Shown: positions 12,407-34,803, counted from the first letter of the stretch. The stretch: 64,000 bases of DNA from Elusimicrobiota bacterium (GCA_046153645.1 JBJXGI010000042.1:116947-180946), one strand, 5' to 3'. Notes: generated by a model from the letters alone, not told the origin. Program-made: numbers and translations.

Positions 12407-15277
<2,871 letters not shown>

Positions 15278-15281
<4 letters not shown>

Positions 15282-16447
15282 AAAACAACCTCTGTCGTCA
15301 TTGGTTCAAAAGTTGAGGCATGTTCACTGTTGGTTAAACGCTTCACACCATATTCATTAACTTGAAAAATAGAAGCAGGTCTTTTGCACCCTTCTGGCCA
15401 AGCTTCAAACCCGGTTAAAGTTACAAAGCATTGGCCTGTTTGAGACAGTTCGTATAAAAGCTGTTCGGCGCGTTCCGCATCAAATTCAGAAAGAACATCG
15501 TCCAACAAACAAATGGGTTTTTGACCACATCTCTCTTCTATAAAGGGAATTTCAGCTAATTTAAAAGAAACGGCACACGTTCTTTTTTGTCCCTCTGAAG
15601 CGTAAAGGCGTGCAGGTCGATCATTAATTAAAAATAAAAAATCATCACGATGCGGCCCTAACATCGTTGAACCTGTTGCTAATTCCTGAGGTCGTATTCG
15701 TTTAAACTGCTCACACCAACGCTCTAAATCGGTTTCACCCCAAGGAGCTTGAAAAGAAGGTTTATATTCCAATTTAATTTTTTCCTTACCCTTTGATAAA
15801 TGCTGTTGGATAAGAGAAACACATTCTGAAAATTCATTTAAGAAATCGGATCTTTTTTGACATAAATAAAGACCACGTTTGGCGACGATCATATCCCAGG
15901 GCTCTAAAAGAGACGAATCTAACAACCCTTCCGCGCATTGTCTTAAAGCCGCATTGCGTTCTTTAACAGCGTCAGCGTAGGCTTTTAAGTTTTCAGCATA
16001 AGAAGGGTCAACTTGAGACAAAATCATATTAACCGCGCGGCGACGTAAATCTGGTTCACCCTTAACCAAAGATAAATCTTCAGGAACGAAACTAACCAAT
16101 GGTACTTTTCCTAATAAATCTCTCAAACGAACAGCTTTTTTTTCATCCTGACGAATGATGCGAGCTGAACCTGTCCGATATTTCATTTCAAGCGTCAATG
16201 GGTCTTGTGCTTGATCATCAGAAACAAACGTTCCCTTAACAGAAAAACCATCTTTAGACCACATCACCATGCTTTCTGTTTCTGCTCCGCGAGGACTTAT
16301 GCCAGTAGATAATATACCAATGGCTTCTAAAAGATTGGTTTTCCCAGCTCCATTTGAGCCAATAAATAAATTAACTCCGGAATCAACATCGAGCTCCAGA
16401 TTTTCATGATTTCTAAATTGACGGAGAATTAATGACTGAAGAAGCAT
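15278..16447 (-). CDS. recF: DNA replication/repair protein RecF
   Basis: FRNH; GSNGAGKTNLLEAI; GPHRDD; ASEGQKR; LLDDVLSEFD. Confidence 0.96.
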
Positions 16448-16448
16448 C

Positions 16449-17621
16449 CTAAACTTTCATAGGCATCATCACATACCGGTAAGCTTCATCTTCGGCTGGA
16501 CGAATGACACCTGGATTTAAAGGGGTTGTTAACTCAATAAGAATCTCTTGGTCTACAAGTGATTTAAGTGCGTCAATCAAATAGGCAGGATTAAAAGCCA
16601 CTTCAAAATGAGACCCTTCATAATTGGTTGATATTTCTGACTCAACTTCCACCCGTCCTTGAGCAGAGGCCTGAATTTTAATGGCTCCTTTAATCAAAGA
16701 CATTTTAACAGAACCACCACGTTCTAATGTCCCCACAGCAGCACGAGTCACCGATGAGAGTAATGATTGTCGATTCACACGAAGCTGAATTTCTTTTGTT
16801 TTTGGAATAACTTGTTCAAAATTAGGGAAATGTCCTTCGATAAGCCGTGAAAGGATAATAGTGCTTCCAGAAGAAAAACTAATTTGATTATCAGTAAATG
16901 AAATTTGAAAATTATCATTGGTTTCTTTGTTATCAGAAAACATTCTCAATAATTCTTGAACAGCTTTTGTTGGAATAATTACTTTTGTTTTTAAATTTTG
17001 ATCAGAAATAGGGCGTTGAATATAGGCCAATCTTCGACCATCTGTTGATACCGCAGTTGCTTTTCCGGCATCAATAATAAAATGAATGCCGTTTAATACA
17101 TATCTGGTTTCATCAGAAGAGGTGGCAAAAATAGTCTTTTTTATCATCTCTTGAAGAATGGCTTTAGGAAAGGGAGTTGCTTTGGTTTCATCAAATTCAG
17201 GTAACACAGGGTAATCTTCTTTTGGAAGTCCTGTAATGTTAAGTCGATCTCTTCCTGACTTAACTTCAACTTTATTATTTTCTACTACTTCAATTTTTAC
17301 TTCACGGTCATCCTCTAAAGTTTTAATAAAGTCCGTTAAAATTTTTGAGGGGATCGTAATTGCGCCCTTATCAATAACATCAGCCTTAATCCAAGTTCTA
17401 ATTCCTACCTCTAAATCAGTGGCCGATAAACGAAGCCCTTGTGCTGAAGCTTCAAAAAGAACATTAGCTAAAATAGGTAGTGTGCTTCGCGAAGATATTG
17501 CACTTTGAACCATTTGAAGTCCTTGTATGAGGTCTCCTTTAGTGATGTTTAGTTTTAATGATTGTCCTCTTTTAGAGTTAGAACTTTGAGTCGTAGTAGC
17601 GGTATGGGTGTTGGTAGACAT
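16449..17621 (-). CDS. dnaN: DNA polymerase III beta clamp
   Basis: TLPILANVL; ATDLE; DETRYVLNG; STDGRRL; RLIEGHFPNF; VMMPM. Start taken as ATG 17621. Confidence 0.97.
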   Translation of the reverse strand: MSTNTHTATTTQSSNSKRGQSLKLNITKGDLIQGLQMVQSAISSRSTLPILANVLFEASAQGLRLSATDLEVGIRTWIKADVIDKGAITIPSKILTDFIKTLEDDREVKIEVVENNKVEVKSGRDRLNITGLPKEDYPVLPEFDETKATPFPKAILQEMIKKTIFATSSDETRYVLNGIHFIIDAGKATAVSTDGRRLAYIQRPISDQNLKTKVIIPTKAVQELLRMFSDNKETNDNFQISFTDNQISFSSGSTIILSRLIEGHFPNFEQVIPKTKEIQLRVNRQSLLSSVTRAAVGTLERGGSVKMSLIKGAIKIQASAQGRVEVESEISTNYEGSHFEVAFNPAYLIDALKSLVDQEILIELTTPLNPGVIRPAEDEAYRYVMMPMKV

Positions 17622-17640
17622 GATTTTTGGCCCTCTTGCT

Positions 17641-17796
17641 TTTAAAATGCTGATTATCAATTATTTTTACTTAAAACTTATTCGATACGGCTGTGGATAG
17701 TTATCCCCTTTTATCCCTGTTATCCACAGCTTTTAACATCATCCACAAAAAAACGCGCTATTTCTATGGTTTATCCACAACTTATCCCCCGCCTAT
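17641..17796. other. oriC: Chromosomal replication origin oriC (DnaA-box cluster plus AT-rich segment)
   Basis: Perfect TTATCCACA at 17720 and 17771; one-mismatch boxes TGTGGATAG at 17692 and TCATCCACA at 17739; weaker TTATCCC boxes at 17701, 17711 and 17782; AT-rich stretch at 17641-17685. Lies between dnaA and dnaN. Confidence 0.9.
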
Positions 17797-19185
17797 TTAA
17801 GGGGTTACAAGTAAGCTTTCTTCTCTAATTTCTTGGGTAATTTTATTTACCAAAGCAACAAAATAAGGGTCACCACTTAGTTTATTTTTAATTTTTGTGC
17901 ATGCGTGCATAACGGTGGTGTGATCTTTACCCCCAAATCCCATTCCAATTTCAATGGTTGAAAACTCAGTGAGTGTGCGTGTTAAATACATCGCCACTTG
18001 TCTGGGGAACGCAACAGCATCCGTTCTTTTTTTGGATTTCATATCGCGCAGGTCTAAATTGAAATGACGAGCCACTACTTTTTGAATTTGATCAATCGTG
18101 ATCGTAGCTGAATGTTCTGGTGAACCCAAAATATCTTTGAGAACCGAGCGTGCCGTATCAACTGTTAAAGGAACTCCTGTTAAAGTGGAACAAGCCATAA
18201 TTCGAATAATAGATCCTTCTAATTCACGAATATTGGTTTTAATGTGACTGGCGACGAATAAAATAACATCATCAGGAACGCTGGTTCCAGCTTCTTCAGT
18301 TTTTTTTCTTAAGATGGCAATTCTGGTTTCTAAATCTGGGGCTTGAATGTCTGCAATAACACCCCACTCAAAGCGTGAAATGAGTCGATCGGCCACCAAT
18401 GTTTCCTTGGGGGGGCGATCAGAACAAATAACAATTTGTTTTTTGGAATCATAGAGTGAATTAAAGGTGTTAAAAAATTCTTCTTGTGAAGACTCTTTGC
18501 CCATTAAAAATTGAATATCGTCAATAAGCAAACAATCCGCGTTACGATATTTAGTTCGAAATTCCTTCATTTTTTCATAGCGAATGGCATCAATGAATTC
18601 ATTTATGAATTTTTCGCTGGCAACATAGATAATACGAGCATTGGAATTATCTTGAGTAATTCGTTTACCAATAGAATGCATAAGATGAGTTTTTCCAAGC
18701 CCAACACCGCCATATATAAATAAAGGATTGTATACGCGGCCTGGATCCTTAGCAACGGCCTCTGCCGCCGCCTCAGCGAATCGATTGGAGGGACCAACTA
18801 CAAAATTAGTAAAGTCATGGTTTGATTCAATTTTGGTGTCTTCATGAGAATTTATTTTTATAGAAGTTGAAGGTGAAGTTGGTTTCCATTCAGAGTTTAG
18901 CTGCGAGTTTTTAATAGGAGGAAAATCTTCATTTTGAGTTTCAAAAGAAAGTGTTATGGCGGCGCTTAGTTCATTGCTAATAATTTCTTCAATACGATCT
19001 TTATAGTGAGTTTTAACCCAATCAGAGAAAAATCGATTGGGCACACGCAAAATAAATTGACTATTCTCACACCGCAATGCTTTTAGCGGTTTAAGCCATA
19101 AATCAAATGTTTCATCTTTAAGGTCAGATTTTAATAGCGATAATACAGTTGCCCAAAGTTCTTCTGTTGTTTTAGTTGTAATCAT
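17797..19185 (-). CDS. dnaA: Chromosomal replication initiator DnaA
   Basis: YNPLFIYGGVGLGKTHL; LLIDDIQFL; NIRELEG; GGKDHTTVMHA. Start taken as ATG 19185. Confidence 0.98.
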   Translation of the reverse strand: MITTKTTEELWATVLSLLKSDLKDETFDLWLKPLKALRCENSQFILRVPNRFFSDWVKTHYKDRIEEIISNELSAAITLSFETQNEDFPPIKNSQLNSEWKPTSPSTSIKINSHEDTKIESNHDFTNFVVGPSNRFAEAAAEAVAKDPGRVYNPLFIYGGVGLGKTHLMHSIGKRITQDNSNARIIYVASEKFINEFIDAIRYEKMKEFRTKYRNADCLLIDDIQFLMGKESSQEEFFNTFNSLYDSKKQIVICSDRPPKETLVADRLISRFEWGVIADIQAPDLETRIAILRKKTEEAGTSVPDDVILFVASHIKTNIRELEGSIIRIMACSTLTGVPLTVDTARSVLKDILGSPEHSATITIDQIQKVVARHFNLDLRDMKSKKRTDAVAFPRQVAMYLTRTLTEFSTIEIGMGFGGKDHTTVMHACTKIKNKLSGDPYFVALVNKITQEIREESLLVTP

Positions 19186-19304
19186 GTCCCTGCTCTGTTG
19201 GAAACCATCTATATGGCAACCATAAGTAAATTTAGAAAAAGATGGGTAAGGATAGAAAACCAAACACCGAAGGTCAAATAGATATCGCCGGGCAATTTAT
19301 TTGG

Positions 19305-19333
19305 TTGCGGACACTTTTTTCAAAAGCTAAGAT
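19305..19333 (+). promoter_or_regulatory. Putative sigma70 promoter of rpmH
   Basis: TTGCGG-17 nt-TAAGAT, ending 9 nt before the rpmH ATG. Confidence 0.5.
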
Positions 19334-19342
19334 TTGCTCCTC

Positions 19343-19477
19343 ATGAAACCAAGTTATAATCCTAATAATAGACGACGAAAAAAGAAAATCGGATTCCGTG
19401 CCCGTATGAAAACAGCCGGTGGCCGAGCTGCATTAAGTCGTCGTCGCCAGAAAAAACGGAAACGACTCATTAAATAA
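19343..19477 (+). CDS. rpmH: 50S ribosomal protein bL34
   Basis: Hand translation (below the ORF-track cutoff): [44 protein letters not shown]; divergent from dnaA. Confidence 0.96.
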
Positions 19478-19552
19478 CCCAAGCGCGCCATAACCCCACT
19501 CTCCTTATATATAGCCTCAAACAGCGGAGGAGTTTTTTTAAGCGGTTCATTT

Positions 19553-19771
19553 ATGAAAGCAGTGTTATTTTGGAGTATTCGTTTTTATCAAATTTGTATT
19601 TCTCCCTATTTGGGAGAAAGGTGTCGTTTTGTCCCCACTTGCTCCGAATATTCCTTAGAGGCAATTCAGAAAATGGGTGCTTTCAAAGGAATTTTTTTAT
19701 CTTTTAAAAGGATTGTGCGTTGTCATCCATGGGGAAAGCATGGCTACGACCCGGTAATATATGAAAAGTGA
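19553..19771 (+). CDS. yidD: Membrane protein insertion efficiency factor YidD
   Basis: [28 protein letters not shown]. Confidence 0.95.
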
Positions 19772-21341
19772 TAACAAGAATTTTATAATAGCCATTATCC
19801 TCACCATGGGGTTTCTGCTTTTGTGGAATGTGTTTGTGGTAAATAAGTATGCGCCATCAAAAACAATTGATGGACAGTCGGTTTCTACCCCAAACAGCCC
19901 TCCTCCTCCAGTTGTAACCCAGCTATCAAATATTGATAAACCAATTGTTAAATCAGCCACTTCTCTACAAGAAATAGCTTTAGTTGGGAAAAATGAAATG
20001 GTAACCATTTCAAATCAAGGTGGCGTTGTCACCAGTTGGATATATAAGGAGTCTAAGAATAGTATTCAATTAATCGTCCCAAAAACCACTCCGTTAGCTT
20101 TATTCCCTGAACTTTTATATGCCATTGAAAAAGTAAGTGATAGCGAAGTTATTTTAACAGCGGTTCACCCTGGCGGTTTTAATGTTATTAAAAGATTAAA
20201 ATTATCTTCTGAACCTCCTTTTCATCAATTGAGTATTTCCTTTAACAATATTTCTGAAACTCCTGTTGTGGCTAAGGGTGATTTAACCTGGATTGGCGGA
20301 ATAGATCAGCATATTGTTTCTGAGCCCTATGATGAAAAACAAGATTCCACCACGATGATGGAAAATCGCGCCGTGGGTTTAGCAACCCAAGTGCGGAGCT
20401 GGACAATCCCTGGTTTTTTCTCTAAAAGTAGTTTTGAACAAACTTCGGCTGGACCATTTTCTTGGGTTGGCGTTGATAACTCTCCTTTTTTAGTTTCTTT
20501 TATACCAGTTGATTCAACCATCGATAACATTTTCGTTCAAGGTAAAAAAAAGACCCCAACAAATTTATCCATTCCCATCCATGCCAATTTAAACCCCAAA
20601 GAATCAAAGACAGTTCACTTTCAACTTTATGTTGGGCCGAAGAGTTTTGAAGAGTTAAAAAAATTGCCATACCATTTGGATAAGTCTATTGATTTTGGTT
20701 TTTTTGGTCTTATTGCTAAATTATTATTAGGAACTCTACACTTCTTTTATAAATGGACAGGTAACTTTGGATGGGCGATTATTATTGTTACTCTTCTTAT
20801 TCAATTTTTGATGATTCCATTAACCAAGAAAAATTTTCACCACGCAGCACGAATGAAAGAACTACAACCCCAGTTGAAAAAATTACAAGATCAGTTTAAA
20901 GGTGATCCGAAGCGAATGCAAATTGAAACCATGAATTTATATCGTAAACAGGGAATGAAATTTATGGGGATGGAAGGATGTTTGCCAATTATTTTGCAGA
21001 TTCCTGTATTTTTTGCTTTTTACTCTGCTCTTCGAGTCGCTTATGAGCTTCGAGGAGCGCCTTGGATGCTTTGGATTCAAGATTTATCAAAAGCCGATCC
21101 TTATTATGTGCTTCCTATATTAATGGGAATCGGTATGTTTTTTCAACAAAAAATGTCTAATGCCACTATCGATCCAGCTCAAGCCAAAGTCATGATGTTT
21201 ATGCCGATTATTTTTACCTTTATGTTTTTCGCGATGCCCTCAGGATTATGTTTATATTGGGTGGTCAATAGTTTAGTCACTATTGTTATTCAGCAATTTT
21301 TTAAATGGCGCCAAAGTCAAATTTCCGCTCAACCCGCTTAA
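19761..21341 (+). CDS. yidC: Membrane protein insertase YidC
   Basis: Large periplasmic domain; [43 protein letters not shown]. Confidence 0.96.
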
Positions 21342-21358
21342 CAACACATGGAGTTTCT

Positions 21359-22741
21359 TTGAACTCCCATACATATAATTCTACCGATACAATTACAGCC
21401 ATTACAACGCCCATGGGTGAAGGTGGTCTTGGGGTTATTCGAGTTTCAGGATCTCAAGCGATAACCCTTTCCTCTCAAGTTTTTAAAAAATCAGGCCATT
21501 CTTTATTAACTGTTCCTTCTCATACCCTTCATCATGGATGGATTCATAACAATGGAAAAATGATAGATGAAGTGATAGCGGCTGTTTTCCATGCACCACA
21601 TTCCTATACAGGTGAACATATTATTGAGTTTTCATGTCATGGAAGCCCTGTTATCTTAAAAGAAATTCTTTTGCTCTTAATTGAAAGAGGTGCTCGCCAA
21701 GCATTACCAGGCGAATTCACTCAAAGAGCCTATTTGAATGGGAAAATGGATCTAATGCAAGCTGAATCAGTCGCGGAACTAATTCATGCTAAATCTTTTG
21801 AATCGGCCCAAGTGGCATTTGAGCATCTAAGAGGAAATTTAAGTTCGCGCTTAAAAAAAATTCAAACTTCACTGATTGATTTGTTAGCTCATGTGGAAGC
21901 AAATTTAGATTTTGTTGAGGAAGATATTCCACCTCTACAAAAACAAGAAATGATTGAAAAAATCAGTCAAATTAAAAAAGAGATAGAGACTATTTTAGCC
22001 ACCAGTGTTCGTGGCAAGGTGCTCTTAGATGGGGTGAAGGTTGTTTTGGCCGGCGAACCAAATGTTGGGAAATCTTCTTTGTTTAATGCGTTATTATCTC
22101 GAGATCGAGCGATTGTCACTCATATTCCCGGAACAACTCGCGATGTTTTAGAAGATTCAGTTGTTTGGGAAGGATGGCCAATTCTTTTGCAAGATACCGC
22201 TGGCCTAAGAAATTCTATAGATCAAGTTGAACAAGAAGGGCAGCGCCGGGCGAAAGAGGCTCATAATCAAGCAGATATAATTCTATATGTTATTGACGGG
22301 TCAATTAACGTTCTTAATATTGATTTGGTTTTAAAAGAATTTGATTCTAAAAAAACCATTATTGTTATTAATAAGTCTGATACTTTTTCTAATAAAAAAA
22401 CTTTTAATATTCCTTCTTCATATCAACAAATTCAAACTTCAGCTAAATCAGGAGAGGGAATTAATGATTTGATGAAAGCGTGTTTAAATCTTTTGACAAA
22501 GAAGATTGGCGTGCCTGCTGCAGAGGGAATTGTTCTCACTCAAGTAAGGCATATTCATCATATGGAAAAGATAAATGAACATTTAGGAAGGTCAGTCATC
22601 AATGCTGGAAAAAATCAAACAGAAGAAGCCTTAAGCTTGGATTTAAGATCTGCTCTTGAAGAACTTAGCCAAATGACAGGAGAGTCTATTAATGAGCAGG
22701 TGCTTGATTCTATCTTTCGTCAGTTTTGTATAGGAAAGTGA
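21359..22741 (+). CDS. mnmE: tRNA modification GTPase MnmE (TrmE)
   Basis: DTITAITTP; PGEFTQRAYLNGK; GEPNVGKSS; GTTRD; DTAG; FCIGK. Start taken as TTG 21359, after GGAG. Confidence 0.96.
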   Translation: MNSHTYNSTDTITAITTPMGEGGLGVIRVSGSQAITLSSQVFKKSGHSLLTVPSHTLHHGWIHNNGKMIDEVIAAVFHAPHSYTGEHIIEFSCHGSPVILKEILLLLIERGARQALPGEFTQRAYLNGKMDLMQAESVAELIHAKSFESAQVAFEHLRGNLSSRLKKIQTSLIDLLAHVEANLDFVEEDIPPLQKQEMIEKISQIKKEIETILATSVRGKVLLDGVKVVLAGEPNVGKSSLFNALLSRDRAIVTHIPGTTRDVLEDSVVWEGWPILLQDTAGLRNSIDQVEQEGQRRAKEAHNQADIILYVIDGSINVLNIDLVLKEFDSKKTIIVINKSDTFSNKKTFNIPSSYQQIQTSAKSGEGINDLMKACLNLLTKKIGVPAAEGIVLTQVRHIHHMEKINEHLGRSVINAGKNQTEEALSLDLRSALEELSQMTGESINEQVLDSIFRQFCIGK

Positions 22742-22758: not shown

Positions 22759-23475
22759 ATGAAACAAACAATTCTTTTTCTTTTCGATTTAGATGGAACC
22801 CTGGTCACAACGGGTGGCGCAGGGCTTCGTGCTTTAGGGAAAGTTTTTCAAGAGCTTTATAATATTCAAGATGTTTGGAGTTCCATTAATCCCAGTGGAA
22901 AAACCGATCACGCTATATTTAGAGAAATCATTCATAAATTTTTGGATCGTCCCATGTCAGACAATGAAATTAAGCCCATCGCCGAAAAGTACATAAGTTA
23001 TTTGGATCACGAAATTAATAGTACTCCCCATCATGTAAAACCGTTGAAGGGAGTCATTGAGTTTTTAGATGAATGTAAAAAGAAAACACATATTTTTTCT
23101 GCCTTAGGGACCGGGAACCTCGAACAAGGGGCTCGAATTAAACTAAAACCAACAGGGCTTAATGATTATTTTGAATTGGGAGGATTTGGTTCTGATGCTG
23201 AGGCTCGATACGAAGTGTTAAAAGCAGGCCATGCAAAAGTTGAGGAGAAATTAGGAGCCACCATTCATCCTGATTATGTGTTTGTTTTGGGCGATACAAT
23301 ATTGGATGTATCAGCAGCAAGGAAAGCTCAATTTAAAGCCGTCGCTATTGCCAGTGGTGGAAGTTCATATGCCGAACTCGAAAGATCCAAACCAGATTTT
23401 CTATTTCAAGATATGAATGACGCATTAAAACTTTTGGATGCTATCGATAATTTAGATACTCTTACTCCTGCATGA
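22759..23475 (+). CDS. HAD-superfamily hydrolase (phosphoglycolate phosphatase-like)
   Basis: LFDLDGTL; TGN; GGFGSD; GDTILDV. Confidence 0.88.
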   Translation: MKQTILFLFDLDGTLVTTGGAGLRALGKVFQELYNIQDVWSSINPSGKTDHAIFREIIHKFLDRPMSDNEIKPIAEKYISYLDHEINSTPHHVKPLKGVIEFLDECKKKTHIFSALGTGNLEQGARIKLKPTGLNDYFELGGFGSDAEARYEVLKAGHAKVEEKLGATIHPDYVFVLGDTILDVSAARKAQFKAVAIASGGSSYAELERSKPDFLFQDMNDALKLLDAIDNLDTLTPA

Positions 23476-25748
23476 AAGATTTAAGTGCCTTTCTCATTAC
23501 AACCGGTCGTACCTTAGCACAGATGGCACTCTACGCTCCTGATCATCCGGCTGTCAAAAACATGGTTGATGAATCCCATCAGGCGCTAACAAAGATTTTG
23601 ACACAAGAATCTGAGTTGATCCTTTCTTCGATTGAAGGAAAAATTCTTGTTAATGGTCAACCCGCAGAAGAAGTTCCAGAAGCAGCACTCCGGCCTTTTT
23701 TGGTTATTATTAATACCTATGGTTTACATAGCATGGGTTTTCTAAAAGGCATTACTCGTGATGAAATGGTGGCTTTTTTTCGCCTTTCTTCAAATCAAGA
23801 ACTAAAAAAAGGGGCGATTGACTTATCAGGATATCTTGAGACCAACAGCATAAAATCCATTCAGCTTAACCAAGCTCGTTACGCCAAAATTAAAGAAGGG
23901 GAACAAGTTGGTCATAATAATTCTCTTTCTTCTCCCTCAATTTCCGATCAAAAAGTAACTGTTGAACAATTTGAACATTTACCTTTAAATGATGTGATTT
24001 CAAAACTCATTCAACAAGCGATTCCCGATCCTGCTATTCAGGCGCTTCTTATTGCTAAAGTTCTCGATTTAGTTAAAAAAGAAATTGATAGCGCTATTGA
24101 AAAAGTTGTCAAAGAATTTAACAAAGAAAAACTACGAATTACCAACGAGAGAGAAAGAACAGAAGGTGTTTTAACCAACATGGCCGATGGTGTGGTGGTT
24201 GTTGACGAAGCGGGTCGCGTTCTTATGATGAATCCGGTCGCTGAACAAATTTATGGCGTTAAGTTGGGTGATAGTCTTGGTAAGCCGCTGTGGGAAGGGG
24301 TCCGGGGCGAACAAATGGTGGCCTTGGCCAAAGATTTAACTCTTCCCACTGAACAACCCATAACCAAAGAAGTAAGCATCCTTGGTGATGAAGATGTCAA
24401 AAAAACATTAAGAGCCAGTCAGGCCACCGTGCAAGATGTCAATGGTCGTGTGGTCGGTATGGTTTCTGTGGTATCAGATGTCACAAAACAAAAAGAACTT
24501 AATCGTCTTCAAACGGAATTTATGGCCAATGTCACTCATGATTTACGTTCCCCTATTCATGCTATTAAACTTTCCGTGGCTGCTATTTTAGAAGGAGCCG
24601 CTGGGCCCACAACACCTGAGGCCAATAAAATGTTAACGGTGGCCAACAAAAATATAGAACGGCTTTCTCGCCTTATTAATGACCTTCTTGATTTTTCAAA
24701 AATTGAATCTGGCCGCATGGAGATTAATCAACAAGAGGTAGAAATTGAACCGCTTTTACAAGAAGCAGCCAGTAGCATGGAATCTTGGTCCAAAAGCCGT
24801 GGAGTATTTATTTCAGTTGAGAAATCAGGAACCGCGCTTCCTACTTTTTCTGATAGTGATCGAATTCTGCAAGTTGTGAATAATCTTATCTCAAATGCCA
24901 TTAAATTTACTCCCGCTGGAGGAAACATTAAATTAAGAGCTATAAACACCCAGGAAAATGGAAAGAATTTTGTTATGGTTCAGGTAGAAGATTCTGGAAA
25001 AGGAATTTCAGAAGAAGATCAAAAAAGAATTTTTGAACGTTTTGTTCAATTAAAACAAAATGAAAAACACGATATTAGAGGAACGGGGTTGGGTTTAAGT
25101 ATTTGTCGAGCTTATATTGATTTGCACGGAGGAAAATTGTCCGTTCAGAGTCCCGTTCCAGGTGGGTCTTGTGGAACCGTTTTTTCTTTTACGCTTCCAG
25201 CTATGGAAAGAAGCGCTTCTGTTCAATCTCCACTGCCACCTTTTTTTGAGCCTTATCAACAAAAATCAAACAAAAAAGGATTTTGGAAGAATTTTTTTAG
25301 ATTGGGTATTTGGCTTTTTATTGGTTTTATGTTTTCTTCTCAAGTGTGGGCACGCCCTTATTCAGGCTGGGTACGACGTGTATTATCGCCCAATCTCATT
25401 CAACTTCGAGATGGAACCACGGTTCGATATCTTGGTATTCAAACACCTGAACAAAATAGTCCTCTCTATGCGGAAGCTGTAGCAGCCAATCGATCTTGGA
25501 TTGAAAACAAAGAAATACAAATTCGCTATGGTTCACAAGAACGCGATACCACCGGTGCTTGGTTGGGATATGTTTTTGTGGAAGGAATCTTGGTTAATGA
25601 GGAATTGGTTAAAAGTGGAATGGCCACTGTTTCTCGATTACCAAATGAAAAAGGATATTTACCTCAATTGTTATCAGCAGAACGATACGCTCGGCGTAAG
25701 AAAAAAGGTTTTTGGAGTGACGCTGCCATTCCCGCACTCAATCCATGA
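23472..25748 (+). CDS. PAS histidine kinase with C-terminal TM/signal segment and degenerate thermonuclease (SNase) domain
   Basis: N-terminal LYxxxHP domain; PAS (MADGVVVVD..NPVAE); H-box THDLRSP; NLISNAIKFT; DSGKG; GTGLGL. From ~aa 611: a hydrophobic segment, then an SNase-like fold (VRYLGIQTPE, LGYVFV, LVNEELVKSGMA, ARRKKKGFW). Confidence 0.85.
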   Translation: MKDLSAFLITTGRTLAQMALYAPDHPAVKNMVDESHQALTKILTQESELILSSIEGKILVNGQPAEEVPEAALRPFLVIINTYGLHSMGFLKGITRDEMVAFFRLSSNQELKKGAIDLSGYLETNSIKSIQLNQARYAKIKEGEQVGHNNSLSSPSISDQKVTVEQFEHLPLNDVISKLIQQAIPDPAIQALLIAKVLDLVKKEIDSAIEKVVKEFNKEKLRITNERERTEGVLTNMADGVVVVDEAGRVLMMNPVAEQIYGVKLGDSLGKPLWEGVRGEQMVALAKDLTLPTEQPITKEVSILGDEDVKKTLRASQATVQDVNGRVVGMVSVVSDVTKQKELNRLQTEFMANVTHDLRSPIHAIKLSVAAILEGAAGPTTPEANKMLTVANKNIERLSRLINDLLDFSKIESGRMEINQQEVEIEPLLQEAASSMESWSKSRGVFISVEKSGTALPTFSDSDRILQVVNNLISNAIKFTPAGGNIKLRAINTQENGKNFVMVQVEDSGKGISEEDQKRIFERFVQLKQNEKHDIRGTGLGLSICRAYIDLHGGKLSVQSPVPGGSCGTVFSFTLPAMERSASVQSPLPPFFEPYQQKSNKKGFWKNFFRLGIWLFIGFMFSSQVWARPYSGWVRRVLSPNLIQLRDGTTVRYLGIQTPEQNSPLYAEAVAANRSWIENKEIQIRYGSQERDTTGAWLGYVFVEGILVNEELVKSGMATVSRLPNEKGYLPQLLSAERYARRKKKGFWSDAAIPALNP

Positions 25749-26626
25749 CAGTTCTTTCAGCAGACCAACCTGTTTGGTCTAAATCTCGTGTTTCCACGTT
25801 TAAAGAATGCCAGCGAAAGTTTCTCTTTTCTGGGCCAACCATCAACAGCTTTAAGATAAGTGAAGAAACAAAAACCGAAGTTCTTCGGCTCAAAAAAATA
25901 AAAAACCGTTTTCTTTGGACCGGTTCATTTATTCATGAGGCTATTGGTCATCTTCTCAAACAAGTTCGTCAGGGAGAGAAAGTTTTTGATATCGAGGAAA
26001 TCTTAAGTAAGTTCAAAATTTCCATGCGAGAACAATTTGTGAATTCAAAGTCACAGACGCTTTCCGCCAGTCGTCTTTTTGAACATGAATTTCAAATACA
26101 GATCGCTCAGGAAGAATGGAAAAGGCAGTGGGACAATGTAGAAAAAACAATTCGGTGGTTTTTTCAATCCAGTTGGTTTTTGAAACTTAAAGATTTAGGG
26201 CCTGAGAGTTGGAAGGTTATTGATGAGGTGGTCCGTTTTGAATTAAACGGAACACAGGCTTACGCCAAAATTGATTGTGCCGTTGAGGTGAAAGGAAATT
26301 TTTTCCTTATTGATTGGAAAACCAGCTCATCAATGGAGAGTTCCGCTTTAAAAGTTGCCGCACTTTATTCTTTTGAGCAATGGGGTGCCGATCCTTCCAA
26401 TGTGCAGGCTCACGCGGTTAATTTATTTACAGGCAAATCTGAACGGATTGATATTGATGAAGACGCACTTATGGAAACTCAAATGAAAATTGAAGAGGAA
26501 GCCGCTCAATTATTTGAAGCCCAAACTCAATTGGGCGATGATCCGTTAAAATTGCCTATGGCCTCTTCACAAGCTTGTTTACAATGTTCCTATCAAAAAA
26601 TATGTCATCCCAACGGAATTCTTTAG
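25745..26626 (+). CDS. PD-(D/E)XK nuclease (RecB/AddB-like, probable 4Fe-4S)
   Basis: WSKSR..F..C; GSFIHE; KID...IDWKT; C-terminal CLQCSYQKIC. Confidence 0.82.
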   Translation: MTVLSADQPVWSKSRVSTFKECQRKFLFSGPTINSFKISEETKTEVLRLKKIKNRFLWTGSFIHEAIGHLLKQVRQGEKVFDIEEILSKFKISMREQFVNSKSQTLSASRLFEHEFQIQIAQEEWKRQWDNVEKTIRWFFQSSWFLKLKDLGPESWKVIDEVVRFELNGTQAYAKIDCAVEVKGNFFLIDWKTSSSMESSALKVAALYSFEQWGADPSNVQAHAVNLFTGKSERIDIDEDALMETQMKIEEEAAQLFEAQTQLGDDPLKLPMASSQACLQCSYQKICHPNGIL

Positions 26627-33867: not shown

Positions 33868-34223
33868 TGAATTGGTTTATGTGGGGATGTTTTCAGCTGG
33901 CGCTTGCAGTTATATTGGGCGCTTTTGGAGCTCACGGCCTTAAAAATAAAGTAACTCCTGAATTATTGGTGATATTTGAAACAGGAAACCGGTATCATTT
34001 TTACCATGGTTTTGCTTTATTAGTGACAGGGATTTTAAGTTTTATTAAAAATGGAACGCAAATCAACACAGCTGGAATTTTGTTTACGATTGGAATACTC
34101 ATTTTTAGCGGCTCTCTTTATTTATTAACACTCACCGGCGTTCGTTGGTTGGGAGCCATTACTCCGATAGGGGGGTTGTCTTTTATTGTTGGCTGGATTT
34201 TTCTCGCAATAGCGGCTCGTTAA
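33867..34223 (+). CDS. DUF423 (TMEM256/YgdD-like) membrane protein
   Basis: LGAFGAHGL; YHFYHG; IFSGSLY; LGAITPIGG. Confidence 0.9.
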   Translation: MNWFMWGCFQLALAVILGAFGAHGLKNKVTPELLVIFETGNRYHFYHGFALLVTGILSFIKNGTQINTAGILFTIGILIFSGSLYLLTLTGVRWLGAITPIGGLSFIVGWIFLAIAAR

Positions 34224-34803
34224 CTAATTTCACTTCCATTGTTTTATCTTTCCAAAGTCCCCGTTTCTCTTTCCTGGCTTCTTGCTCTAATTTTCTAAAG
34301 GGCTCTAAATATTTGTAAGGGTATCGACTAAACGCTCTCGCGTAACCTGCCTCGATAATAAGTGCATTTAAAAACCCTTTTTCATAAGAGTCGCGTTCAC
34401 AAACTTCTTCGGCTAATTCAAAGTCTAAATTCCCACAGTCTTTTGGTTCAAAATAAACATAAGCCAGGATTCGACCATGACGATCTTTATGACCGGTGAC
34501 TTTATTGGCCACTTCATATTCGAGTCGTATACTTTTACCTTGGACCAATTTTTTAACAAATTCAGAAGATTTTCTTCCTAAAGATTGAATTACTTGAACG
34601 TCCCGACGTGTGCGCGCGGCATCTTGATTTAATTTCTCAGAAGGGTGAACTTCAGGAGTATCGATTCCAATCAGTCGAACACGTGTGTTGTTGGTTAAAA
34701 GAAGAGTGTCACCATCGATGACGCGTTTAACACGGACGGTTGTTTCACCGTAAGCGATATATGAAAAAAATAAACAACCAATGAGAACGAGGGGTTTTCT
34801 CAT
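34183..34803 (-). CDS. Secreted thermonuclease (SNase family), catalytic residues intact
   Basis: Signal peptide; VIDGDT; RLIGIDTPE; DRHGRILAYV; ARKEKRGLW. Confidence 0.92.
   Translation of the reverse strand: MRKPLVLIGCLFFSYIAYGETTVRVKRVIDGDTLLLTNNTRVRLIGIDTPEVHPSEKLNQDAARTRRDVQVIQSLGRKSSEFVKKLVQGKSIRLEYEVANKVTGHKDRHGRILAYVYFEPKDCGNLDFELAEEVCERDSYEKGFLNALIIEAGYARAFSRYPYKYLEPFRKLEQEARKEKRGLWKDKTMEVKLVNEPLLREKSSQQ

Follow-up and report, generated by a model that had tools for sequence, protein, structure and literature searches.

A histidine kinase of an Elusimicrobiota family continues in frame into a signal-peptide-like segment and a degenerate SNase domain

The window analysed here is a stretch of 64,000 nucleotides from an Elusimicrobiota bacterium (GCA_046153645.1, JBJXGI010000042.1:116947-180946), and its plus strand carries at 23472-25748 a single open frame of 758 codons in which a histidine kinase is joined to a signal-peptide-like segment and a degenerate staphylococcal nuclease (SNase) domain. 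An earlier annotation made from the DNA alone (below, the sequence-only reading) had described one continuous open reading frame (ORF) of 758 amino acids (aa) with PAS, HisKA, HATPase and SNase domains, which the open frame and the Pfam matches bear out. The basic patch, the hydrophobic segment LGIWLFIGFMFSSQVWA (from 25302) and the SNase motifs SPNL / GIQTPE / DTTGA lie where that annotation had placed them, and the motifs DGDT / GIDTPE / DRHGR that it quoted from an intact thermonuclease of the window (34183-34803, minus strand) are likewise present. The gene and its parts are as follows.

23472..25748, plus strand: fused gene for a histidine kinase, signal-peptide-like segment and degenerate SNase domain, 758 aa (ORF, Pfam, 34 further clusters)
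23472..23876, plus strand: N-terminal cytoplasmic alpha/beta domain, aa 1-135, with an LYxxxHP motif (model pLDDT 88.9, pTM 0.82)
23964..24179, plus strand: helical or coiled-coil connector, aa 165-236 (AlphaFold helices 172-183 and 187-236)
24159..24494, plus strand: PAS domain, aa 230-341 (Pfam PF00989/PF08448)
24510..24713, plus strand: HisKA dimerisation domain, aa 347-414, with phospho-acceptor His356 at 24537-24539 (Pfam E 5.6e-17)
24852..25202, plus strand: HATPase_c domain, aa 461-577 by Pfam (E 1.5e-28)
25206..25271, plus strand: variable disordered linker, aa 579-600 (18% mean pairwise identity, site rate 2.9, pLDDT <50)
25272..25304, plus strand: amphipathic basic helix KKGFWKNFFRL (like a motif at the C-terminus of unfused homologues)
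25302..25352, plus strand: signal-peptide-like h- and c-region ending V-W-A627, with a predicted signal peptidase I site between A627 and R628 (length, -1/-3 pattern, rates)
25353..25745, plus strand: SNase-fold domain with degenerate active site, aa 628-758 (Pfam, PDB profile match, AlphaFold, residue counts)

The Pfam match to SNase covers aa 650-750 at E 6.1e-15 (E 1.2e-16 with the domain alone as query), and a profile of ten fused domains matches PDB structures of the Staphylococcus aureus thermonuclease at E 2.6e-19. The AlphaFold model shows the SNase domain (aa 628-750, pLDDT about 90) as a unit distinct from the kinase domains; residues 581-607 are disordered, and 606-626 form a 21-residue helix of low confidence (pLDDT 46-62). 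The pTM of 0.37 means that no inter-domain arrangement or packing is defined. Counts out of 35 refer here and below to the query and 34 other 90%-identity protein clusters of the same architecture. Across them H356 is invariant and followed by D/E357 in 35/35, and the N, G1 and G2 boxes of the HATPase domain (N471, N475, D507, G509, G511, G537, G539, G541) are invariant, motifs by which the protein belongs to the HisKA-type histidine kinases. What sets it apart from canonical kinases with extracytoplasmic sensing, whose sensor and transmembrane segment (TM) precede the dimerisation domain, is that the only hydrophobic segment noted (aa 611-627) follows the HATPase domain. The source genome has 40 receiver-domain matches, none of which adjoins the fused gene.

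An assembly artefact or a stop codon lost in the source genome is ruled out by the 34 other clusters with the same Pfam architecture and by genomes of the same family. The clusters combine the kinase with PF00565 at 50-60% identity (35 including the query, among the best 120 of 5739 homologues), and in a search of 41 genomes the SNase domain was found in 10/11 from the same family, in uninterrupted open frames of 770-884 codons; the single exception is a genome that is 71% complete and also lacks the kinase. No stop separates kinase and SNase in any of the 11 genomes with a match (11/11). The architecture search that the sequence-only reading had called for therefore reveals a conserved fusion and not the lost stop codon of one genome. 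Its proposed check of read support at 25200-25360 is answered from 25250 onwards, where an independent public contig spans 25250-25949 with zero differences; 25176-25250 is not bridged by any listed piece.

The fusion seems to be confined to a single family. Across 401 genomes of the phylum, only the 8 from the fusion-bearing family gave strong matches (E 1.8e-64 or better), and five weaker matches lie in frames of 205-281 codons, three of which were read and are intact stand-alone nucleases. A metagenome scan kept 80 loci, 1 fused and 79 stand-alone nucleases, and a scan of a genome collection with the full alignment was keyed on generic kinase motifs and returned unrelated kinases. None of 227 unfused or distant kinases, retrieved as top hits only, carries an SNase domain, and unrelated fusions may occur elsewhere. 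Another family has a weak SNase-like match (G035:C1:2035486-2035893) within a 625-codon open frame without a kinase match.

In an unrooted tree of the kinase part built by a quick method, a long branch with support 100 parts 15 unfused kinases from the 35 fused proteins, with which the incomplete P0036 and P0037 are placed. The SNase tree, also unrooted, sets 40 fused-type domains apart from 26 stand-alone ones with support 100. Because the fused members form one clade in both trees, with matching subgroups, a single fusion origin followed by vertical inheritance is the simplest reading. The intact secreted thermonuclease of the window groups with the stand-alone enzymes and not with the fused domain.

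The unfused orthologues in related families are about 600-690 aa long and, where they bear a name, carry the label Elusimicrobia. They share the N-terminal domain, PAS domain, catalytic core, linker and helix with the fused proteins, but they stop after the helix, lack the SNase domain and lie in different gene neighbourhoods. Since the N-terminal and PAS domains are common to fused and unfused kinases, the input domains of the kinase predate the tail. The N-terminal domain has no Pfam family and no PDB sequence match, its best fold match is not a clear one (Z 5.1, rmsd 3.4, 62 aligned), and an Atlas match to DICT at 0.88 is a lead only. Related families have this LYxxxHP domain both in unfused kinases and in HEAT-repeat proteins of 730 aa (L139-L152, L156, L157); confidently modelled but matching no named family, it is a candidate for an unnamed signalling domain. 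In several families the unfused kinases (L140, L144, L145) adjoin a ComF-family gene, confirmed by NCBIfam for L140, and they also lie downstream of a gene like nucleotide-sugar dehydrogenase or, in family f4, of a 720-aa membrane-anchored protein. Those of family f3 (L148:2413-4257, L149:5522-7477, L150:5318-7246) have kinase cores only 21-25% identical, against 40-47% in other families, and are possible pseudokinases.

Residue equivalences in the SNase domain were fixed by alignment to the S. aureus nuclease, in which we take D19, D21, R35, D40, E43 and R87 to form the active site. The query has kept the fold together with R35 and E43, and has exchanged D19 for S, D21 for N, D40 for Q and R87 for A, so that the set D21, D40, R35, E43 and R87 of an active thermonuclease is incomplete; the loss of the Ca-binding Asp residues and one catalytic Arg in a conserved fold had been noted correctly from the sequence. 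Across the 35 fused domains D19 is retained in 11, D21 in 10, R35 in 34, D40 in 10, E43 in 7, R87 in 1 and Y85 in 0. All six active-site residues occur together in 0/35, compared with 82/88 stand-alone relatives (many of them near-copies), and three or fewer are left in 34/35. The label "catalytically dead" given to the domain is not universal, as P0003, which is nested beside the query in the tree, keeps five of the six (D21, R35, D40, E43 and R87) and may be a kinase fused to an active nuclease. This position suggests that the active site may have been lost repeatedly, under relaxed selection. P0003 is also the only fused member without the Q689 of the family.

The SNase domain evolves at a site rate of 0.86 against 0.82 for the HATPase domain, with a mean identity of 59%, while the positions of E43, K84 and R87 fall in the 87th-98th percentile of site rates. 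Because the domain is as slow as the HATPase domain while its active-site positions drift, these rates indicate that the fold is needed and catalysis is not. Neutral decay of the SNase part, which would have undone the sequence-only reading, is excluded by them. The equivalents of K84, Y85, R87 and Y113, which hold the nucleotide in the parent enzyme, are lost or drifting, and the net charge of the domain has a median of -2 (range -8 to +6; +5 in the query). R635, R636, R691 and the R35 equivalent are kept in 32-35/35, and conserved R635, R636, R652 and R691 possibly make up a non-canonical basic site. The membrane-proximal strand (R628, P629, V634-V637) is among the slowest-evolving sites, and the most conserved surface residues appear to be those of this new N-terminal strand, RP-x2-G-x-VRRV. 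A homodimer test of the SNase domain scored 0.00 and carries no weight either way.

The basic patch ahead of the hydrophobic segment appears, by comparison with relatives, to be the old C-terminus of the unfused ancestor, because unfused orthologues stop directly after the same W/K-rich amphipathic motif (for example WWKKLLGLK-stop), which lies within their last 20 aa in 80/83 and, in a looser pattern, just ahead of the hydrophobic stretch in 35/35 fused proteins. The patch is therefore present as described but is better seen as an ancestral amphipathic helix, which is probably a membrane anchor and would double as the n-region of the signal. A terminal motif of this kind resembles the membrane-targeting helix of MinD.

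The hydrophobic segment, too, is present where it had been noted, with the dimensions of a signal peptide instead of a full TM: the distance from the last K/R to the RP motif is 14-20 residues (median 15) in the 35 fused sequences. Its hydrophobicity (KD19 1.69, KD11 2.65) is close to the values for 172 N-terminal signal peptides picked heuristically from the source genome (1.72 and 2.59), and lies below that of the genome's polytopic TMs (KD 2.11, a biased sample as selected at 1.8). Short length and hydrophobicity thus match signal peptides better than polytopic TMs, which is why we read the segment as a signal peptide. The segment itself is 26% identical, with Ala at -1 in 34/35 (Ser in 1), A/L/V/S at -3 in 33/35 and a polar residue at -2 (Q/E/H in 23/35). 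Site rates are 0.11 at A627 and 2.65 for aa 612-626, which is nearly saturated, and Ala stands at the equivalent place in 14/100 stand-alone SNases. It is the near-fixed Ala at -1 in a fast-varying surrounding that suggests cleavage. The predicted site coincides with the start of the fold and lies within one residue of the register in the window's own secreted nuclease; the source genome has two signal peptidase I genes. By pattern counts, the sequences show the basic n-region, short h-region and small -3 and -1 residues of signal peptidase I substrates. Tat export was considered and rejected, because no twin-arginine motif is conserved ahead of the h-region and only a minority of the 35 sequences have RR in the helix. 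Three fused proteins (P0032, P0033, P0034) carry Cys at the fifth position ahead of the site, in contexts that resemble a lipobox (LGGC, IFSC, LFSC), two of them with Tyr at -3, and this subgroup may have switched to lipoprotein-type processing.

The gene that follows the fusion overlaps its stop codon.

25745..26626, plus strand: PD-(D/E)XK nuclease gene (Pfam PF12705)

With the window protein as query, this gene is found in 9/11 same-family genomes and 0/49 other genomes; its product has Cas4-like cysteines, and any functional link to the fusion is hypothetical. Gene order in the six same-family regions read is (mnmE upstream) kinase/SNase, PD-(D/E)XK nuclease, uracil-DNA glycosylase, UPF0158 and glycerate kinase. 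In the window the fusion closely follows yidC-mnmE in the same orientation, about 4 kb from dnaA; the preceding region (12407-22741) holds gyrB-recF-dnaN-dnaA and yidD-yidC-mnmE. A scan for promoters and terminators gave results at chance level.

We tentatively favour, at somewhat under an even chance, a reading in which the tail is exported and cut by signal peptidase I, so that the kinase stays anchored to the membrane and an SNase-fold protein without catalytic function is set free. A peripheral-membrane histidine kinase with a C-terminal amphipathic helix as anchor would have been joined in frame, once in the family ancestor, to a secreted thermonuclease encoded downstream, whose Sec signal peptide would have come along with it. 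The kinase part would fold and work in the cytoplasm, as its intact motifs suggest, with input through its own N-terminal and PAS domains as supposed for the unfused orthologues. Helix and hydrophobic stretch would act together as an internal signal sequence from which the C-terminal domain is threaded through Sec, and the conservation around A627 and R628 points to a signal peptidase I cut between them. The result would be a two-product polyprotein, an anchored kinase plus a 131-aa periplasmic SNase-fold protein that needs no catalysis and is most likely a binding protein. The fusion would fix their production at 1:1 and, more speculatively, may couple the tail's export or cleavage to the state of the kinase. 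The sequence-only reading had named release by signal peptidase at V-W-A as an alternative to its sensor idea, and this alternative is now the better supported of the two, although we infer export, cleavage and a non-catalytic binding role from sequence patterns.

Several observations weigh against it. Signal peptidase I substrates carry their signal at the N-terminus and lack strong positive charge in the early mature region, whereas here the signal starts about 600 residues in and the 14 residues after the site have a net charge of +1 to +4 (median +3); +3 or more occurs in only 5/70 heuristic signal peptides of the source genome. Strong positive charge early in the mature region is expected to hinder Sec export. 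Ala627 also sits in a conserved A-R-P run and could be retained for packing instead of cleavage, the model offers no reason for the products to stay fused except that several mutations are needed to split them, and the role of the released domain is a prediction.

Positive charges (n-side median +5, C-side median +3) flank the segment on both sides and would suit a monotopic anchor with the helix, which would leave the SNase-fold domain in the cytoplasm. Its partner there would be nucleic acid or a protein, for example the PD-(D/E)XK nuclease, and the kinase would be tied to DNA processing. The equally family-restricted range of that nuclease gene, its overlap with the fusion stop and the uracil-DNA glycosylase gene next to it speak for such a role, but co-inheritance may reflect one acquisition event only. 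We consider this topology unlikely, as it leaves the -1/-3 conservation without a reason, has neither a conserved helix-breaker in mid-segment nor a defined inter-domain packing in its favour, and differs from the stand-alone relatives inspected, which have N-terminal signal or anchor sequences. A back-to-front receptor, whose exported tail remains joined to the kinase in the manner of a type II anchor or is released only once a ligand has uncovered the cleavage site, and in which the ligand alters dimerisation, clustering or anchoring of the kinase, is a serious possibility though improbable on balance. It would explain why the fusion is kept in 35 clusters and 10/11 genomes even though a single stop codon behind the helix would be enough to return to the ancestral kinase, and it accords with the congruent kinase and SNase trees, the slow sites from R628 to V637, the retained arginines and the modelled 21-residue helix; regulated signal-peptidase cleavage has a precedent in RsiV/RsiP (PMC8844934). 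Selection on a released domain would, however, account for the conservation equally well, and for a stable TM the segment is short, with polar ends and a canonical cleavage site. The nucleotide pocket is lost, the domain has a negative median charge, and the stretch of about 23 residues that links the ATPase domain to the membrane is 18% identical, the fastest-evolving part of the protein and disordered, which makes a rigid piston or rotation from tail to kinase unlikely.

Extracellular DNA or RNA as the ligand takes somewhat less than half of the weight that we give to the receptor reading and is distinctly unlikely overall, the alternatives being another polyanion or a protein. The wider proposal, in which a repurposed arginine surface lets a dead nuclease tail capture extracellular DNA/RNA or some other polyanion and ligand-dependent cleavage or clustering switches the kinase, appears rather unlikely. 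Nucleic-acid binding by the tail is unsupported, given the missing canonical pocket and the median charge, so that the nucleic-acid sensor of the sequence-only reading has fared poorly on pocket, charge and floppy linker; a DNA sensor is possible but not the best-supported reading. Least probable of the alternatives, in our view, is that the nuclease part is made from an in-frame internal start with tolerated read-through or that the tail is a neutral passenger, the latter being contradicted by the site rates. Several junctions (for example L001, L009, L010) do have an ATG, GTG or TTG that would yield a normal signal peptide, the sequences of three short records (P0121, P0123, P0124) open with the signal segment, and P0037, which groups with the fused clade, ends after the kinase. 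Yet none of the 11 DNA junctions has a start codon at a conserved position, and 3/11 lack ATG, GTG or TTG in the 27 codons before the h-region, so that an own start at TTG 25302, which had been raised as a refutation, is not position-conserved in a comparison of start codons (Shine-Dalgarno sequences lie outside it). The unbroken frames also argue against separate translation, and the short records come from contigs of 703-1052 bp, on which truncated gene calls occur, as P0122 exemplifies. P0161 looks frameshifted.

Among known systems, PAS-HisKA-HATPase kinases (a WalK/PhoR/PnpS-like core; HK853 and VicK structures) have the same catalytic core and give the best NCBIfam and fold matches. The fusion nevertheless falls below every NCBIfam cut-off shown, has no N-terminal TM or extracytoplasmic domain and no adjacent response regulator, and carries its membrane segment and extra domain C-terminal to the ATPase. 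With staphylococcal nuclease/thermonuclease (PF00565) it shares the fold, a signal peptide directly before strand 1, R35 and core motifs, but the fused copy sits behind a 600-aa cytoplasmic protein and has a degenerate active site. The fold is also kept after loss of catalysis in the SNase domain of extended Tudor proteins (PMC7641849); these are eukaryotic and intracellular, with a Tudor insertion that binds, and the fused domain has no such insertion. RsiV/RsiP anti-sigma factors are cut by signal peptidase I in a regulated manner and resemble the layout predicted here in having a cytoplasmic effector, one membrane segment, a signal peptidase site and an extracytoplasmic C-terminal domain (PMC8844934); the effector here is a 600-aa kinase, and no occluding helix or DUF4179 is seen.

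Bradyrhizobium FbcH is a polyprotein from one gene whose two products are parted at an internal signal peptide; FbcH joins two subunits of one respiratory complex, whereas here a kinase and a pseudo-nuclease have no known common task. By analogy, the fusion may be most like such an internal-signal polyprotein or, if cleavage is regulated, like RsiV/RsiP. The sequence-only reading knew of no described precedent, and our literature search, which left most subscription journals and supplements outside, likewise turned up no paper on a histidine kinase that carries a signal peptide and an SNase domain at its C-terminus. The passages found in a review on kinase sensing (PMC8534201) mention no C-terminal sensor.

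The architecture is real, conserved and apparently undescribed; all its parts are known and their arrangement is not. Its confinement to one small uncultured family limits the reach of the finding. Whether the kinase is a signal-peptidase-processed polyprotein with a secreted protein or has a C-terminal extracytoplasmic input, either of these readings breaks a rule of thumb, and a back-to-front sensor, if true, would be a receptor that arose de novo by the joining of a secreted enzyme to a soluble kinase. The same family offers a test of whether Sec and signal peptidase I can process a signal peptide that is preceded by 600 residues of folded protein, and its unfused ancestor-like kinases, active stand-alone nucleases and near-intact P0003 form a series in which the passage from enzyme to binding module can be tested.

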